Notes: generated by a model not told the origin, from the letters alone. A stretch of DNA of 64,000 nt from a phage (GCA_027262695.1 GCA_027262695.1_4722.1); one strand, 5' to 3'. Counted from the first letter of the stretch, positions 13,042 to 20,003 are shown. Numbers and translations: made by a program.

Positions 13042-14628
13042 TTAGAAGTTGCCTTTGGTGGTTACAGCATCAACCAGGTTGAACAAATCGATGCTCAGCT
13101 TATACACTTCCTGCTGGCTACGGTTGAGCAGCGGGCTATAAGCAGAAGGGTTGATGTTCGGCATGGTGTATGGAATCGGGGCAGAGCCATCAACGCTGAT
13201 CTTGAACTGGCTATCCAGGAACAGGTTAATTGCGCCACTTACCATAACCGCATTCGGGTTGTTCCCTAACATCGACGGTAAGATGTTGATGATCATATCG
13301 GAACGCATCTGCTCAGCAGCGCGGTTACAGTCGTAGCCTTTAATGAACGGTACCGCATCGGTAACCGCAACCGCCCACTGACCTGGCATGATACCCAGCT
13401 CTGGGTGACCGTGGTTGTCCGCAATGAAACGGAACGATTCCAGCATGCGGTACGTCATCGCCGCAGGCATCATGGACGCCAGCGAGGAGCAATAGATCGT
13501 TGGATAATCGATCACATCCCAGCTTTGGCTATCCGTTGGCATCCAACCGAATTCGGTGGTTGCTGATGTACCGCGACGGGCTTCCACATACGGGAACAGC
13601 GTCAGGACATCACGGATATGTTCACCGAAATGCCGTTTCATTTCACCCCAGCTCAGGCTACCGTTAAACGAAAAGCCCTCATCACGCATGATCTCATTGA
13701 ACATCGTGTGCGCAACCAGCGGTTGTTCACGGACGTATTGAGAAGCCTCAACGTAAACATCCTCGTTGTTGGCCTCGCCGGGATGAGAACCTAGCTCGAA
13801 GGTCTGACGAACGGTGCCCACGCTATCGAACGCTTTCTTCAGATAGATGGTTGGGATATTTGTATCGATGCTGGCGGGTTTTACCTTCTCTGTTGCAAAA
13901 CACAGCGCAGCATCCATCCCACGAACAACCGGTTCCTGTTGTGGTCGGTATGTTGAGTGGTTCACGACGTCCGCATACATCGGGTCGAACTGTTGCATCA
14001 CGTTCTGCATCGAAGGATCCATGAACTGATTGTCCATACCACCATTACCGAGCCAACGTGCAGTCGATGCGTAGGTCAGCGTATCCTGCACACGGGTACT
14101 GAACTGAACGTCGTTGTTCATTGGGTCATACGCCCCGGTAAGCAGATGGATAGCATCTTGAGGAGCTGCACGTACAACCTGTTTACCGAACATATCAACG
14201 GTGGTTGTTTCCAGCACGATAATGACGTTGGTGAAGAAGAACTGCAATTCGTTCGGCAGATCCTGTACGCGGGTTGTGTATGCATCCAACGGAACAGAAT
14301 AATCGGTGTATCCAGACACGTAATGAACACGTTTGCTTCCTGGAGCTAACGCAACCGATTCTTCTGCTGCCATCATGAAATGGAAACGACGGGTACCCCA
14401 ACCATTAGCAATCTCTGAAACCCCTTCCGGCTGTGCGGTTTGCTCTAACATCCCGGCAGCCAGTTTATTGATCGCTGATGGTGTTGTCGCGGTGCCGAAT
14501 CGCGTTGTGTTAATAAACTCTTCCAGGCTATGCATGCTGTCAGCGTGGAACTGAATTGGACGACGGTGCACATTGTTGTATGGTGCGGTTTCAACCATCA
14601 GGATTTCACGAACATTCATCGATACCAT
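13042..14628 (-). CDS. hypothetical protein (528 aa)
   Basis: Long ORF; start lies 1 nt from the stop of the upstream gene (coupled). Confidence 0.55.
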   Translation of the reverse strand: MVSMNVREILMVETAPYNNVHRRPIQFHADSMHSLEEFINTTRFGTATTPSAINKLAAGMLEQTAQPEGVSEIANGWGTRRFHFMMAAEESVALAPGSKRVHYVSGYTDYSVPLDAYTTRVQDLPNELQFFFTNVIIVLETTTVDMFGKQVVRAAPQDAIHLLTGAYDPMNNDVQFSTRVQDTLTYASTARWLGNGGMDNQFMDPSMQNVMQQFDPMYADVVNHSTYRPQQEPVVRGMDAALCFATEKVKPASIDTNIPTIYLKKAFDSVGTVRQTFELGSHPGEANNEDVYVEASQYVREQPLVAHTMFNEIMRDEGFSFNGSLSWGEMKRHFGEHIRDVLTLFPYVEARRGTSATTEFGWMPTDSQSWDVIDYPTIYCSSLASMMPAAMTYRMLESFRFIADNHGHPELGIMPGQWAVAVTDAVPFIKGYDCNRAAEQMRSDMIINILPSMLGNNPNAVMVSGAINLFLDSQFKISVDGSAPIPYTMPNINPSAYSPLLNRSQQEVYKLSIDLFNLVDAVTTKGNF

Positions 14629-14629
14629 T

Positions 14630-16216
14630 TTATTTTTTTCCTCTTAAATTTACTACATGTTCATTTAATCGAACAACTAATTGCACAAGCTGCTGACGGA
14701 TATCTGCTGGGCAAAGCATCAATCCTTTACGATCAGCGGGGACTTTCTCAAGGATTTCAGGGCCTGCTGCTGAAACATCCCAATCCCATTCACAAAACGC
14801 ATCGGCTACCATGTTAATACCGACAACCGGTAAAGTTGTACGTTCATCTTCATACATGGCATGCGGATACAATTTATTGACGGTAATAATCTCCTGTGGT
14901 TTTAATTGGTGGATAATCTGATAAACATCATCACGTTTAACCTGGATGCCTACGGTTAATGCGGCCAGTTGAGGGAAACCCCAATGGTCTAACAAGCATG
15001 CCGCAATCGCTAACGCTTTTGCCTGATGCACGGCTTCAATCGGTGCCAGACTTCTCGCCGGAAGATGGCTGTCCAACAACCATTGCGCCAGTGCTCGGCA
15101 TCCGCGATTGATCGGTTTTAACTCAACGGTATCATCATGCTTCGCGTAAGTGTATCCATCGTAACGTTTTGCGATACGCGCATACATGTCTTCAACCTTA
15201 CCGTACGGTGCGGTTTCATCAACGTCGTGTAACACCCGTTCCATCTGGGTAAGATAAGCGATATCAAGAATGAGTACACGTGGTGAACGTTTATCTTTCA
15301 CCATCAGCGCATCAATCACACCTTGGCTATCTTCATCTTGCGCATTCCCTCGCGGAGTTTTCTCACGTATGGGTCCGCTGAAACGACGTTCCGTACAGAG
15401 GTTATTCACATAACTGAAAATCAGCGTCACCAGATGCGTACAACTGACCAACACCCCATCTTTAACGACGGGCTGCACGGCTTGGTCCAAATCACGTACC
15501 GCAAGGCGTCTGACGATGGCTTGCGAACGCAACCAACCCGGCACTTTTTCTGTTGACATGTAATCCACGGTCATCGACAACGTGATCTTTTTATCGCCTG
15601 TCTGTGCACGGATATAGTCTTCCAGTCGGTCATAAGCTGCGATATCATGAATGCGTGTTTTATACATCAGCGACATCGCCACTTCTTCTTTACGTACTGT
15701 CCCGTACGTTTTCCCCGCATCAATCAGGAACTCAGCCCAGATAGGCACCATCAAACGAACGTAAATCGCTAACGCGGTTAACTCAACATAATCGTTTCGT
15801 AAATAGGTTTTCTCTGGGATATCATCCTCGCCTAATGTCGTTTTCATGTCTGGCGGTAATTTTACCCAACCTGGGGTATTACACAACGCCAGAATCTCTT
15901 CGTATACAACGGGTTTGTAGATTTCGCCAACGGCGCGACTCAGCTCCTCCATTTGTTGTTGCGGTGCAATGTAATTATCCATCGCTTCACGTGCTTTAAC
16001 GAACCCTTCAAAGATATCATCGGTTCGACGTGGGTTCTTTTGCTCTATCCAGGCAAGATACTTGTTAATCTCTCGCATCTGATTGCTGGCCATATCCCCA
16101 TCGATCTTGATATAACCTTGGCCTGAAAATTCCACGGTCCGTCCATCACGATGTTTGATAAGATAATGGTCTAGCTTTTCTTTGCCTTGCGTCGTAATGA
16201 CGGGCACAATGTGCAT
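14630..16216 (-). CDS. hypothetical protein (528 aa)
   Basis: Long ORF with an AAAAGAGG RBS and the conserved 11-mer about 50 nt upstream. Confidence 0.55.
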   Translation of the reverse strand: MHIVPVITTQGKEKLDHYLIKHRDGRTVEFSGQGYIKIDGDMASNQMREINKYLAWIEQKNPRRTDDIFEGFVKAREAMDNYIAPQQQMEELSRAVGEIYKPVVYEEILALCNTPGWVKLPPDMKTTLGEDDIPEKTYLRNDYVELTALAIYVRLMVPIWAEFLIDAGKTYGTVRKEEVAMSLMYKTRIHDIAAYDRLEDYIRAQTGDKKITLSMTVDYMSTEKVPGWLRSQAIVRRLAVRDLDQAVQPVVKDGVLVSCTHLVTLIFSYVNNLCTERRFSGPIREKTPRGNAQDEDSQGVIDALMVKDKRSPRVLILDIAYLTQMERVLHDVDETAPYGKVEDMYARIAKRYDGYTYAKHDDTVELKPINRGCRALAQWLLDSHLPARSLAPIEAVHQAKALAIAACLLDHWGFPQLAALTVGIQVKRDDVYQIIHQLKPQEIITVNKLYPHAMYEDERTTLPVVGINMVADAFCEWDWDVSAAGPEILEKVPADRKGLMLCPADIRQQLVQLVVRLNEHVVNLRGKK

Positions 16217-16269
16217 AACAACCTCTTTTCGCGGTTCCCTGTTAAACGTTTTCTATAACGCCATCAAGG

Positions 16270-16280
16270 AGGTAATATAA
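16270..16280 (-). promoter_or_regulatory. Candidate phage promoter element TTATATTACCT (minus-strand sense)
   Basis: Identical 11-mer also at 27417-27427, in both cases 50-70 nt upstream of a minus-strand start codon. Confidence 0.35.
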
Positions 16281-16418
16281 GCGTGAATAATTTTGGATTC
16301 CTGCTGAGTCATCGCTCAGCATGCAAGGCATCCCGCCGAAGCGAGACACCTTGCACTAACGGAAAATACTCGCGTTACCTTCTGAATCGAAGACCCAGAA
16401 TGCGATACTAAAGCATCA

Positions 16419-17207
16419 TTAGAATGCTAAGCCATCAAAGGCGATTGACGGATCATCATCGTCATTTGCGCTAGGCGCGTCCCAACGCGTGTCAGGGGCT
16501 GCTGGAGCCGAACTTGAGGCATTAGAGTTACCGTTGTACTGGCCGTTACCAGCATTACGGTTACCGCCACCGTTGTTATTGTTACGATTGTAGCTGTTGT
16601 TACCATTACTTACGCTACGGCTTTCACCGTCAAAGTTGGTTGCGAGGATGCTTGGTAACACCGCACGATGAATACGTACGAATTCCAGCGCACAAAGCGG
16701 AGAAACAACACCGATCTGCAAAGGTTGTCCAGACTCATCAACCAAAGCGTGGAAACGCGGTGGTTTGAACACGAATTGGATGTTCGGTTTTTGGTATGCG
16801 GTTACCGCGATGTACACCGAACCATCGTCATTCTTACCGACCCACGTTGTGCTCTCGGTAATCTGCTTTTTCTTACCTGGGTTATTGCGATCATCGATAA
16901 CCTTTTCGTTCTTCATCGCAAAGCGTTGACCAGGTTTACCCTTAGCAACCTGCTCAAGGATCGCCAGTAGGTTATAGAACGCGTATGAACTCATGCGTGC
17001 CCAAATGCTTTCAGCACGACCCTGTTGGTCTTTACGTCCTGTATAAACCGTAATACGTGGTTGATTTTTAGCGACGCTAATTTTCAATGATGGAATTGAA
17101 TTACCGCCCTCAACCTTCTCGTCCGCCCACAGTTTCCAGTTGTTGTCGTCATAAGCCGTAGGAATGATATTTCCTTGTGGTTTACTGCCCGAATTCCAAT
17201 TGCTCAT
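16419..17207 (-). CDS. putative ssDNA-binding-like protein with Gly/Asn-rich linker and acidic C-terminal tail
   Basis: Globular N-terminal about 190 aa, then 'NGNNSYNRNNNNGGGNRNAGNGQYNGNSNASSS' and a C-terminal 'NDDDDPSIAFDGLAF'. The architecture resembles bacterial SSB; this is inference from architecture, not from an OB-fold alignment. Confidence 0.3.
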   Translation of the reverse strand: MSNWNSGSKPQGNIIPTAYDDNNWKLWADEKVEGGNSIPSLKISVAKNQPRITVYTGRKDQQGRAESIWARMSSYAFYNLLAILEQVAKGKPGQRFAMKNEKVIDDRNNPGKKKQITESTTWVGKNDDGSVYIAVTAYQKPNIQFVFKPPRFHALVDESGQPLQIGVVSPLCALEFVRIHRAVLPSILATNFDGESRSVSNGNNSYNRNNNNGGGNRNAGNGQYNGNSNASSSAPAAPDTRWDAPSANDDDDPSIAFDGLAF

Positions 17208-17281
17208 TTTCAGCCTCGTTACGTAGTGTGAATCAATTTCTGACTTCAGATGATAGTCAATATTAGTTAAAAATTACAGCC

Positions 17282-18070
17282 TCAACGAAACATGTCTAAC
17301 AGAAAACGTTTCGCAAACGGGTCTCGTAATTGGTTAACGCCGAAGCGGGTACGGTCTTCCGTGGTTAACGGATTCCATTGACTTTGTTTCGCAAGGTCTA
17401 ATAACATCCTTTTTACTTTCACCGGTCCGCTATTGAACTGTACCGCTTGGTCACCGAACGTACCCAGGGTCATTTTCGTAAAGGGGAGGTTCGCAACCTC
17501 TGGACGATCACCCCCCGTCAGTTTGGTTGACCATTGATGTTTTCGTTTCAAAGTTCCGGTATGGCTCTCTACCAAAATAAGTTCACCAAAACCGGTTCTT
17601 GCTAACAGGTCAGAAACATAATGGGTGGTGATATACGACGTCTTGGTTATCGTGGGTAATTTACAATCCATTGATTCGATATTCGGAAACTTCTCTACCG
17701 ACGATAGCAACCCATGGTAAAGTGCTGCAAGCCCTTTTTGTTTTTCGGTATGCGGCTCCTTGTGTATGGCATGCGGATAAACACGCTTGATCGATGCGTA
17801 GGTTGGCGCATAAATCCGTAAACGAATATGCGGGATAACTTCGTTAGCCAGTTGTCGTAATTGCATCAGTTCGTTATGGAAATCGCCGTCAATCATTGAC
17901 ACCGGTAATCGGTGCTGCTCAACATCCTCGTAGCTTTCAACGAAGTTACGTGCTAACGTACGCAGGTTAAAAAGCCAATCCATCGGCGTCTCCGGCTGTT
18001 GCTGTATTGCCGTGAGTGTTACCGACGTCCCTACCGATAACGGATAATCACCTAACGAGCGGGTGTACAT
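17282..18070 (-). CDS. hypothetical protein (262 aa)
   Basis: ORF on the dominant strand. Confidence 0.5.
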   Translation of the reverse strand: MYTRSLGDYPLSVGTSVTLTAIQQQPETPMDWLFNLRTLARNFVESYEDVEQHRLPVSMIDGDFHNELMQLRQLANEVIPHIRLRIYAPTYASIKRVYPHAIHKEPHTEKQKGLAALYHGLLSSVEKFPNIESMDCKLPTITKTSYITTHYVSDLLARTGFGELILVESHTGTLKRKHQWSTKLTGGDRPEVANLPFTKMTLGTFGDQAVQFNSGPVKVKRMLLDLAKQSQWNPLTTEDRTRFGVNQLRDPFAKRFLLDMFR

Positions 18071-18081
18071 ATCACTCCCTC

Positions 18082-19227
18082 TTATAGCGGTAACGTATCA
18101 AGCCATGCAGAAACCTTCAGGGCATCAACGTTCGGATATTTATTGCGTACACGTTCAACCAATAAACGCTTCACGTTGTCTTTTGTCAAGTCTCCACCTT
18201 TCTCGATAACATTGTTAACAAAACTGTTCTTTAATAACGATTGGTTATTTTTGGCATCGGTTTTAATCGACCAAATGAAACCTGGGTATAAAGCAGGAAT
18301 AGAACGGAACGTTTTCGCTGCATCATCTTCCTTATCGCAACGGATTCGGATATGATCCCCTTTTTTCAATGAAGCAAGTTCCCGTTCCAAAACCCGTACG
18401 ATTTCATCGCCAACAAGACCATGCAATTTTATCGTCTTGTAGACATCGGCTTTCTTGTTCTCAACGAACTCCCATTGGTCATTGAACGATTCGGTTAATG
18501 CGTATCGAAGATAACCTTTCGGACCTTCTTCTCCATGCGCAAGACGTCCGAACGAACCTCCCACCATGATACGCCCTTTCTGCGACTGTAAGTGAATATG
18601 TCCACTTACAATCCATCCTTGCGTTTTCTCCACCATCGCATTATACGCATCGCTACTATGCACACACGTTGCTTTTAACGCTTCTGGTGGTAGCTGATAT
18701 TCAAACGCACCATGCATCAGAATAAAGTCAGGTGATCCTTTCTCGTCAATGAGTTTGTTCACTGCTGCTAACGTGACGTCTGGGTCATGGCTGTAGTTAT
18801 CAGGAAGATAAAGCACTTTCAACCCGAAGTCTTCATCGACCATGCAGAGATCGTCATAGTAACGAACTTTCGCACCGATTTCCATGACTTCATTCTGTTC
18901 CACAAACCACTGGCTTTGCTTCTGATCGTGTAAGTTGGTGCCCTCAAGAAAGATCAACGTAATATCGTGTTTTCTTGCGTATCTTAACAGCCAGGTACCC
19001 CAGGCACGAACAGCAACCACATCGCTTGTTACAAAGGTCGTAATACGGTCGAAGACATCACCACTGAATGTAATCACGTCGAGTAACGCCGGGTCCTCTT
19101 TCGTGATGTAATAACGCAGCTGGCTAATCAGGTTTACCGTTGGCGTTTGACGATGGATAAAATGAATATCCGATAAATTGATTCCTCGTAATACCCCAGG
19201 CGTTTTATTTCGGCTGAAGTCTCGCAT
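18082..19227 (-). CDS. Mre11/SbcD-like metallophosphoesterase nuclease
   Basis: Calcineurin-like phosphoesterase motifs in canonical order: 'LSDIHF', 'GDVFDR', 'GTNLHD', 'MHGAFE', 'GHIH'. Confidence 0.65.
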   Translation of the reverse strand: MRDFSRNKTPGVLRGINLSDIHFIHRQTPTVNLISQLRYYITKEDPALLDVITFSGDVFDRITTFVTSDVVAVRAWGTWLLRYARKHDITLIFLEGTNLHDQKQSQWFVEQNEVMEIGAKVRYYDDLCMVDEDFGLKVLYLPDNYSHDPDVTLAAVNKLIDEKGSPDFILMHGAFEYQLPPEALKATCVHSSDAYNAMVEKTQGWIVSGHIHLQSQKGRIMVGGSFGRLAHGEEGPKGYLRYALTESFNDQWEFVENKKADVYKTIKLHGLVGDEIVRVLERELASLKKGDHIRIRCDKEDDAAKTFRSIPALYPGFIWSIKTDAKNNQSLLKNSFVNNVIEKGGDLTKDNVKRLLVERVRNKYPNVDALKVSAWLDTLPL

Positions 19228-20003
19228 TAGAATTCCTCTAAATCGTTGCTGCTGATCGTCCCGGTTGTCGACGGAATATTGCTACGACCTGCTGTTGTCG
19301 AAGCCGGTGCGGCCAGGTTCAGTCCGTTCAATAACCCACGCTCTTTTACCGTACGACGTGAGCCGTCACGAACATCATAAAGAGGTACGTTATAATGGTC
19401 GAAAATCCGAAGCCATTGTACGTAATCCGCAACCACATGTTCTTTGCTCTCGTTCGGTGCAAAACGATCGAGTTGGTGGTCAACGTAAGCTTTTGCGCTT
19501 TCAGGATTGAAATTGTACTGTCGGCGGGCCTTGTCCACCATCGCAAGAAAACAGGTGTTAGGGTCGCGGTTGATATACGAACGCGTTCTGATGAAAATCG
19601 CTGGGACCGTAAACAGAACCTTGTTGTTATTTCCATCAGCAACAATGTTAACAGCACGGTGTGGCTGACCGGCGATTTTACACCAGTCATGAACGATGGT
19701 GCTATTACTCAGCATCTCTGCGTATTCAGGGTCCTGCGAAAACATGCCTGCGAACGGATGCAGGAAATGTCTCACGAACAACGATTCAGGCAGGATGTTG
19801 GGACGCGTCATCTCCTGTAACCCTTTTCGTAGAAGCTCGCTGTTGTCGACTAACTCCTGCCATATGTCCGGTCGTGTTTTCGGAATCGAAGGATCCTGAG
19901 CGCGACGGATACGTTCTTCCTCGTTTACAACCACTACCCCAGCCGGATACCCTAGTAAATCCGTTCCTTCGTTAACGTTGCTGTTAGTTTGGCGCGCCTT
20001 CAT
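19227..20003 (-). CDS. hypothetical protein (258 aa)
   Basis: ORF on the dominant strand. Confidence 0.5.
   Translation of the reverse strand: MKARQTNSNVNEGTDLLGYPAGVVVVNEEERIRRAQDPSIPKTRPDIWQELVDNSELLRKGLQEMTRPNILPESLFVRHFLHPFAGMFSQDPEYAEMLSNSTIVHDWCKIAGQPHRAVNIVADGNNNKVLFTVPAIFIRTRSYINRDPNTCFLAMVDKARRQYNFNPESAKAYVDHQLDRFAPNESKEHVVADYVQWLRIFDHYNVPLYDVRDGSRRTVKERGLLNGLNLAAPASTTAGRSNIPSTTGTISSNDLEEF

Follow-up and report, generated by a model that had tools for sequence, protein, structure and literature searches.

A probable chmC (imp6) gene of a Goslar-like nucleus-forming jumbo phage and the SSB-type C-terminal tip of its protein family

The chmC locus and its gene neighbourhood

The window (the whole stretch of 64,000 nucleotides of phage DNA that was analysed) contains, on its minus strand, one ATG-to-TAA open reading frame (ORF) that spans exactly positions 16419-17207, as established from the ORF list and the sequence. 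The ORF encodes a protein of 262 aa, its TAA stop occupies 16419-16421, and a Shine-Dalgarno sequence, GAGG, can be read on the same strand at 17214..17217, 6 nt 5' of the ATG. In a tblastn search of phage genomes, the product was 99.2% identical in amino acid sequence, over its full length, to Goslar_00176 of Escherichia phage vB_EcoM_Goslar, and the weaker matches (~32% identity) belonged to phiKZ-like jumbo phages. Alignment with PhiPA3 gp61 and phiKZ gp67 gave ~30% identity. These orthologues have been described under two names: Enustun et al. 2024 (PMC11077065) refer to PhiPA3 gp61, phiKZ gp67 and Goslar gp176 as "Chimallin C" (ChmC), the phiKZ orthologue is Imp6 in a preprint on import factors (bioRxiv 10.1101/2024.03.27.586873), and "ChmC/Imp6" is used in a 2026 review. 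[quoted passage not shown]

The DNA of the window phage was 81-92% identical to that of Goslar gene by gene, as in a close relative and not Goslar itself. Codon comparison of chmC with the gene for Goslar gp176 gave 65 synonymous and 2 non-synonymous differences; the tail accounted for 15 of the synonymous ones and for both amino acid changes, the conservative P235S and I255V, and the linker within it (aa 194-246) contained 12 synonymous differences and 1 non-synonymous difference. These codon differences establish that the tail of chmC is translated and under selection.

Sequence databases added little to this identification. The protein was assigned to PHROG 3284 ("unknown function") with an E value of 1e-35, a Pfam scan of ChmC returned zero families, the SSB and Whirly models included, and a PDB sequence search yielded chance WD40 matches only (E >0.1). 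When E. coli SSB was compared with ChmC by phmmer, using an approximate query sequence, there was no match. A scan for sigma-70 promoters around chmC found 0 sites, a terminator scan returned two terminator-like sites that lie on the wrong strand within the ORF and are at chance level, and an Rfam search of 12-21 kb, at E values up to 0.1, gave nothing.

The flanking genes, all on the minus strand, are also related to those of phiKZ. Upstream of chmC lie a gene for a gp66-like protein of unknown function (17282-18070; PHROG 3229) and one for an SbcD-like nuclease resembling phiKZ gp65 (18082-19227; PHROG 100). [quoted passage not shown] PhiKZ gp68 is described as part of the nvRNAP complex (bioRxiv 10.1101/2024.03.27.586873), and the gp68-like neighbour is labelled "Sigma factor" in the ASO table of PMC12571901. 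A Pfam scan of five neighbour proteins returned zero families. PhiKZ, PhiPA3 and Bacillus phage AgentSmith, as well as a metagenomic contig, have the same arrangement of the genes for the SbcD-like nuclease, gp66-like protein, ChmC, gp68-like protein and PicA. The annotated phage records among the matches listed (40 of 115) were all at least 222 kb in size, which suggests a family restricted to chimallivirus-like phages.

The predicted core and the published biology of ChmC

The structure of ChmC was predicted with AlphaFold2 from an alignment of 122 sequences. The mean pLDDT was 82.9, with values >95 at ~aa 12-192 and of 42-58 at aa 195-262, confirming a folded core and a disordered tail. The core (~aa 12-193; 16629..17174, minus strand) is predicted to consist of three strands and a helix followed by four strands and a second helix (beta-beta-beta-alpha, then beta-beta-beta-beta-alpha), and the predicted structure contains the two beta-sheets packed on two helices that characterise a Whirligig fold. 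This model gives the core a Whirly/PUR fold, as does the ChmC paper, where the fold of the PhiPA3 protein was likewise an AlphaFold prediction (PMC11077065). With 24 K+R vs 18 D+E, the folded part has a basic character (pI 9.4). Of the six basic residues that were mutated in PhiPA3 ChmC, three (R35, R44 and R63, changed in the mutant Rmut) align with basic residues of the protein studied here (K42, R51 and R71), and Lys or Arg triple mutants of the PhiPA3 protein lost binding (PMC11077065).

The nearest structural relatives of ChmC are the plant Whirly proteins, which are abundant organellar ssDNA-binding tetramers with a disordered acidic/aromatic C-terminus. Sequence identity to ChmC is ~10% for the plant proteins StWhy1/PBF-2 (1L3A) and StWhy2 (3N1H) and for MRP1/MRP2 of T. 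brucei (2GIA). On direct reading, the KGKAAL motif of plant Whirly proteins is absent from ChmC at the equivalent strand. Unlike the plant proteins, ChmC has a long N/G-rich linker and lacks a match to the Pfam Whirly model, and the repeats of PhiPA3 ChmC are described in the published account as having three strands, compared with four in Whirly proteins.

The biochemistry of ChmC comes from the PhiPA3 and phiKZ orthologues, which are ~30% identical to the protein in the window, and the Goslar protein has been studied by genetics and localisation only. Few early non-structural proteins of PhiPA3 are as abundant as ChmC, which was first detected when ChmA or the RecA-like UvsX served as the bait in proximity labelling (PMC11077065). 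ChmB, ribosomal proteins and subunits of both phage RNA polymerases co-purify with PhiPA3 ChmC, which is located at the shell and in the cytoplasm, not in the DNA mass (PMC11077065). It forms a homotetramer by SEC-MALS and binds ssRNA and ssDNA with Kd values of 58 nM and 184 nM, respectively (PMC11077065). Its C-terminal 50-70 residues are disordered and comprise ~40 N/G-rich residues followed by an "electronegative cluster" of ~15 residues rich in S, D and E; the N/G-rich region of Goslar gp176 is described in Fig. 3A of the same paper (PMC11077065). Deletion of the PhiPA3 tail abolished condensates and shell localisation, with the tetramer and RNA binding retained (PMC11077065). In phiKZ, gp67 binds Imp1/PicA (gp69) directly, at ~2:1 (bioRxiv 10.1101/2024.03.27.586873). 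The pulled-down protein is named both gp67-FLAG and FLAG-Imp6 in that preprint, which leaves the position of the tag ambiguous; a C-terminal tag that left binding intact would mean that Imp1 needs no free C-terminus on gp67.

The cellular role was addressed in Goslar by knock-down of gp176 with dCas13d, which reduced the efficiency of plating to ~4% and resulted in smaller nuclei with less DNA (PMC11077065). Phage mRNA accumulated in the nucleus upon ChmC knock-down and phage proteins fell globally, and eCLIP showed that ChmC binds phage mRNA (PMC11077065). Goslar gp176 forms puncta within the nucleus and on the shell; in rescue experiments the RNA-binding mutant, Rmut, failed, and ChmC lacking its tail supported nucleus growth but not titre (PMC11077065).

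These published data bear directly on the preliminary description of the ORF, which had compared its product with bacterial SSB, proposed a search for an OB fold and suggested a single-stranded DNA-binding or protein-recruiting hub. The likeness to SSB holds for the architecture and for the tip of the family but not for the fold or the family itself, since structure prediction returned a Whirly/PUR fold in place of the OB fold and there is no sequence homology to SSB. Binding of ssDNA is documented for the PhiPA3 orthologue; the ligand documented in cells is phage mRNA and not ssDNA at a replication fork. The two observations named as counting against the proposal therefore divided, as no OB fold was predicted and binding of ssDNA by the PhiPA3 orthologue was on record. 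The suggestion of a protein-recruiting hub was supported by direct binding of Imp1/PicA by phiKZ gp67 and by the association of PhiPA3 ChmC with ChmB and RNA polymerase subunits.

The disordered tail and the conserved tip

In the window, the tail consists of a disordered linker (aa 194-246; 16470..16628, minus strand), with an Asn/Gly/Ser-rich core at aa 199-233 (16509-16613), and an acidic C-terminal tip, ANDDDDPSIAFDGLAF (aa 247-262; 16422..16469, minus strand), which appears to be a diverged form of the tip found elsewhere in the family. The linker core is 77% G+N+S and 60% N+G. The best 40-aa segment reaches 75% G+N+S, a value attained in 0 of 2000 shuffles of ChmC and the highest among ORFs of at least 100 aa in the window and the rest of the Goslar genome, where the runner-up reached 57.5%. 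The C-terminal end of the protein reads ...SANDDDDPSIAFDGLAF, the final residues of the acidic tip being ...NDDDDPSIAFDGLAF, and the last 16 residues include 5 acidic and 0 basic residues. The Gly/Asn/Ser-rich segment of 40 aa noticed in the preliminary description is therefore real and its quoted C-terminal sequence was correct, the minus strand being a detail missing from that description, and the overall plan of a globular domain, a Gly/Asn-rich linker and an acidic tail ending in Phe was borne out by the pLDDT profile, the composition and the ORF.

To place the tip in its family, homologues were collected with an exhaustive phmmer search using aa 1-205, which retrieved 476 cluster representatives at E values up to 1e-3; a word-indexed homologue search had found only 8 matches, and the exhaustive search was needed to reveal the family. 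A 945-aa protein with 11 matched stretches (P0009) was rejected as a member, its score being inflated by repetition in a tandem-repeat artefact. Statistics on the tip were obtained from the 149 members of 190-310 aa among the best 150 of the 476 representatives. Counted from the C-terminus, position -7 is F in 37 of these 149 proteins, -6 is D in 77, -5 is D in 107, -4 is D in 113, -3 is I, L or F in 119, -2 is P in 104, and -1 is F, M, W or L in 125, giving F-D-D-D-[ILF]-P-[FMWL] as the consensus of the last seven residues. An exact DDD[IL]PF end is present in 18 of the 149, several of which end in DFDDDIPF. The pattern [DE][DE][ILMFV]P[FWMLIYV] is found at the C-terminus of 77 members, and 0.03 would be expected when the last 20 residues of each protein are shuffled; the order of the residues and their anchoring to the C-terminus are thus conserved, and more so than N/G composition. 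Linkers differ greatly in length and sequence from one member to another, and the tip is retained in 35 of the 41 members that have no N/G-rich linker. Among cultured phages, the tips read EDLPF (FLC9), DDIPW (RP12), DFADDLPF (Bosolaphorus), FDESIPF (SA002), FDTDVPM (AgentSmith), FDEDMPSF (phiKZ), FDDEIPNF (PhiPA3) and ...AFDGLAF (Goslar).

Judged by its residues, the family consensus is the C-terminal motif of bacterial SSB itself. The hexapeptide DDDIPF at the C-terminus of E. coli SSB recruits partner proteins, according to the abstracts of PMC5872125 and PMC10018359. SSB is nowhere mentioned in the ChmC paper (PMC11077065) or the Imp6 preprint (10.1101/2024.03.27.586873), and a link between the ChmC tail and the SSB C-terminal motif was not found in the literature searched, the coverage of which is incomplete. 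The putative SSB-type tip of the family would thus go beyond the published accounts of ChmC that were found.

Within this family the Goslar clade is an outlier, with a tip that is diverged as far as the alignment tells. The Goslar tip peptide, WDAPSANDDDDPSIAFDGLAF, differs from the ends of PhiPA3 and phiKZ ChmC in having 8 residues inserted after the Pro and before the final Phe. MAFFT aligned its DDDP and terminal F to the DDIP-F of other members, and the Goslar-type tip DDDDPSIAFDGLAF fits the SSB motif only loosely, its acidic run and Pro being separated from the Phe at the end by the insertion. The end AF[DQ]GL[AP][FL] is kept in 64%-identical relatives of the Goslar clade whose linkers differ. 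With a tip off the family consensus, the action of the canonical tip may be altered in the window phage and Goslar.

Possible roles of the tip

A mechanism can be proposed from the predicted fold and the published work on the orthologues. The core, as a homotetramer like that of PhiPA3 ChmC, would bind single-stranded nucleic acid on a basic beta-sheet face with little sequence specificity and would prefer RNA over DNA by ~3x, taking the PhiPA3 values, and weak multivalent contacts made by the Asn/Gly-rich disordered linker would drive the formation of condensates with RNA. Located in the nucleus and at the shell, ChmC would bind phage mRNA and would be needed for mRNA exit, nucleus growth and virion production, with the tail needed for a late step, as published. 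The tip would act as a short linear motif resembling the C-terminus of SSB and dock into a pocket on a partner at the nuclear shell, which may be Imp1/PicA, ChmB or another phage protein; alternatively, it may, like the SSB tip, fold back to occupy the basic face where ChmC itself binds nucleic acid. From these comparisons we infer a docking or auto-inhibitory function for the tip. The N/G-rich linker and the tip are both lost in the published tail deletion, and the phenotype of the Goslar deletion, in which the nucleus grows and no progeny is made, could reflect loss of either part.

A further reading, which is possible but doubtful, is that ChmC is the missing SSB of phiKZ-like phages, in which a Whirly tetramer replaces the OB-fold SSB and the tip recruits replication, recombination and repair proteins, perhaps in addition to the role in RNA metabolism. 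A genome-wide survey found phiKZ-like phages to be without an SSB and suggested non-orthologous displacement (Kazlauskas et al. 2016, PMC4889955); given phages with no detectable SSB, ChmC may also serve as an SSB-like hub. Its resemblance to E. coli SSB, an OB homotetramer ending in ...DFDDDIPF, extends to a tetramer, single-strand binding, a disordered low-complexity linker (Gly-rich in both) and an acidic tip that ends in an aromatic residue, and tail-dependent condensates are common to PhiPA3 ChmC and, reportedly, bacterial SSB. The match of the family tip to E. coli DDDIPF is consistent with this reading, as are the affinity of the PhiPA3 orthologue for ssDNA, its proximity to UvsX and high early abundance, the reduced DNA content of knock-down nuclei, the puncta of Goslar ChmC inside the nucleus and the example of the plant Whirly tetramers with their acidic/aromatic tails. 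No ORF resembling E. coli SSB was found in the Goslar genome: phmmer with full-length E. coli SSB and its OB domain against 701 ORFs from the window and the rest of Goslar gave a best E value of 0.24, in a search with a single approximate query that is low in sensitivity and insensitive to divergent OB folds. The stretches of the Goslar record listed contain no annotated SSB, with ~168-207 kb covered by the ORF searches on the related window only. Among the same 701 ORFs, a search for other acidic, hydrophobic-terminated tails returned two cases, neither of them convincing, and no further tail of the SSB kind.

Other phage SSBs offer a parallel. As far as their descriptions go, T7 gp2.5 (which ends in Phe), N4 SSB and the DUF669 proteins resemble ChmC in having an acidic C-terminal tail for docking or auto-inhibition and differ from it in being OB-fold or OB-like. 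The DUF669 proteins were assigned as SSBs from their acidic tail and the absence of another SSB (PMC4889955), and the same logic fits ChmC. A broader form of the proposal, to which we would give the same tentative standing, is that ChmC is a Whirly-fold analogue of SSB with a genuine SSB docking peptide, and is either the SSB missing from phiKZ-like phages or, more modestly, a recruitment hub of the SSB type inside and at the nucleus. As a hub, it might conceivably bind, through the tip, proteins of genome maintenance or transport, encoded by the phage or imported from the host, with mRNA export as only part of its role; this, too, is put forward with considerable reserve.

Several observations stand against ChmC as an SSB. 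Unlike E. coli SSB, it has a Whirly/PUR core without sequence homology to SSB and prefers RNA, and the Goslar tip has diverged. RNA is bound ~3x more tightly than ssDNA, and the ligand recovered by eCLIP was mRNA. The trapping of mRNA and the lower levels of phage proteins upon knock-down could alone explain the reduced DNA, and PhiPA3 ChmC is found at the shell and in the cytoplasm and not in the DNA mass. Tail-less Goslar ChmC still supports growth of the nucleus, which argues against a requirement for the tip in bulk DNA replication.

Rather unlikely is the view that the tail is compositionally constrained disorder, with an N/G-rich portion that promotes condensates and an acidic portion that, as a generic electronegative cluster without a docking motif, maintains solubility and dampens non-specific binding. 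It matches the published interpretation (PMC11077065) and agrees with the wide variation of linker length and sequence in the family and with the Goslar tip, which is off consensus in a protein that still functions. A generic tail would not readily explain an ordered motif in 77 of 149 members (0.03 expected from shuffled tails) or the fixed distances from the C-terminus at which Pro (-2, in 104 of 149) and a closing hydrophobic residue (-1, in 125 of 149) occur, nor would it account for the persistence of the tip in 35 of 41 members without an N/G-rich linker and of AF[DQ]GL[AP][FL] at 64% identity as the linkers of the Goslar clade change. If the tip were a mere acidic solubility tag, nothing would change and the finding would be an ordinary one.

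It is improbable that the tip mimics host SSB, with ChmC in the cytoplasm or at the shell either capturing or decoying proteins that interact with host SSB, for instance nucleases or helicases, or swaying defences that sense phage SSBs. Many members do end in the bacterial DFDDDIPF and ChmC is partly cytoplasmic, and a defence system controlled by the host exonuclease SbcB and a phage SSB-like protein has reportedly been described in a recent preprint, which would count in favour of mimicry. The SSBs of E. coli and Pseudomonas end in DDDIPF, from which Goslar ...AFDGLAF, phiKZ DEDMPSF and PhiPA3 DDEIPNF all differ; altered tips in phages of hosts with DDDIPF fit co-evolution with a phage partner better than mimicry of the host. 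That ChmC is a canonical OB-fold homologue of SSB is extremely improbable and is refuted at the level of prediction; the layout of the tail and an acidic tip with a final Phe are all that speaks for it, against the negative Pfam, PDB and phmmer comparisons with SSB described above.

The preferred reading thus remains ChmC with a predicted Whirly/PUR core, a condensate linker and an SSB-type tip that would dock a partner or regulate the protein's own core. Few non-structural proteins of nucleus-forming phages have been characterised, and ChmC is among them; conservation within its tail is highest not in the N/G-rich region emphasised in the literature but in an ordered, C-terminally anchored peptide that shares the consensus of the bacterial SSB tip. 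The conserved tip would provide a way to split the two halves of the tail-deletion phenotype, through mutants altered in the tip only, and suggests a possible tether of ChmC to the shell or to Imp1/PicA. It also makes ChmC a candidate for the SSB that the genome-wide survey did not find in phiKZ-like phages.

Uneven divergence between the window phage and Goslar

The segment at 13042–20003 of the window was compared gene by gene with the corresponding locus of Escherichia phage vB_EcoM_Goslar (L001; Goslar 154934–167719). Divergence was strongly uneven between genes. ChmC (16419–17207, minus strand) and the gp68-like nvRNAP subunit (14630–16216, minus strand) each retain >99% protein identity to their Goslar counterparts, with 2 changes apiece, and in both cases DNA divergence is ~8.5%. 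The gp66-like protein (17282–18070, minus strand) is 91% identical. In contrast to ChmC, the homologue of PicA/Imp1 (13042–14628, minus strand), whose gene adjoins the gp68-like gene in the block, shares just 86% protein identity with Goslar (74 changes in 528 aa). The import-specificity factor PicA/Imp1 therefore evolves far more rapidly than ChmC, the protein it binds.

A spacer with predicted RNA structure downstream of chmC

The chmC and gp68-like genes are separated by a spacer of 202 nt (16217–16418, minus strand), and RNA folding predicted an unusually stable structure for its transcript (−71 kcal/mol, z −4.5), equaled by none of 200 shuffled sequences. The predicted fold contains a perfect 16-bp stem closed by a UUCG loop (hairpin at 16321–16356, minus strand) and then a second hairpin of 6 bp. 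No U-run follows the two hairpins. The spacer is 92.6% identical to its Goslar counterpart, where the Goslar record carries no terminator annotation, and it has no match in Rfam. The spacer may act as a phage-polymerase terminator or as a processing or stability element.

Distribution and variants of the ChmC family

A 99% identical ChmC protein (P0001, Goslar-like contig of 241,126 bp; 263 aa, with one additional Gly in the linker) has an NCBI entry under Salmonella enterica serovar Schwarzengrund, where it is called a hypothetical protein. It belongs to a cluster of 145 member sequences; Goslar-like phage genomes therefore occur in enterobacterial assemblies labeled as bacterial.

In some metagenomic family members of 419–466 aa (P0015, P0020, and P0058; also P0039), the ChmC-like core is present as two complete tandem modules. 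A single linker rich in Q/N/G comes next, and the chain ends in one SSB-type tip (...FDTDIPF, ...DFDDSIPF, or ...DFDTDIPF). These proteins represent a duplicated-domain variant, two chains of which could make a tetramer-equivalent. The second-ranked match of the exhaustive phmmer search, P0009 (945 aa), consists of an 84-residue Arg/Ala-rich unit occurring 11 times; it lacks ChmC features, its score was raised by repetition, and it was rejected as a family member and is to be omitted from family alignments.

The same block is present in the 200-kb Bacillus phage vB_BspM_AgentSmith (L009; 129493–138059), where it comprises an SbcD-like gene, a gp66-like gene with the annotation structural protein, a ChmC-like gene, and two genes of ~490 aa. 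The linker of the AgentSmith ChmC homologue (220 aa) is short and not N/G-rich, yet the protein terminates in ...DSFDTDVPM. Both block and tip thus occur in phages of Gram-positive hosts as well.
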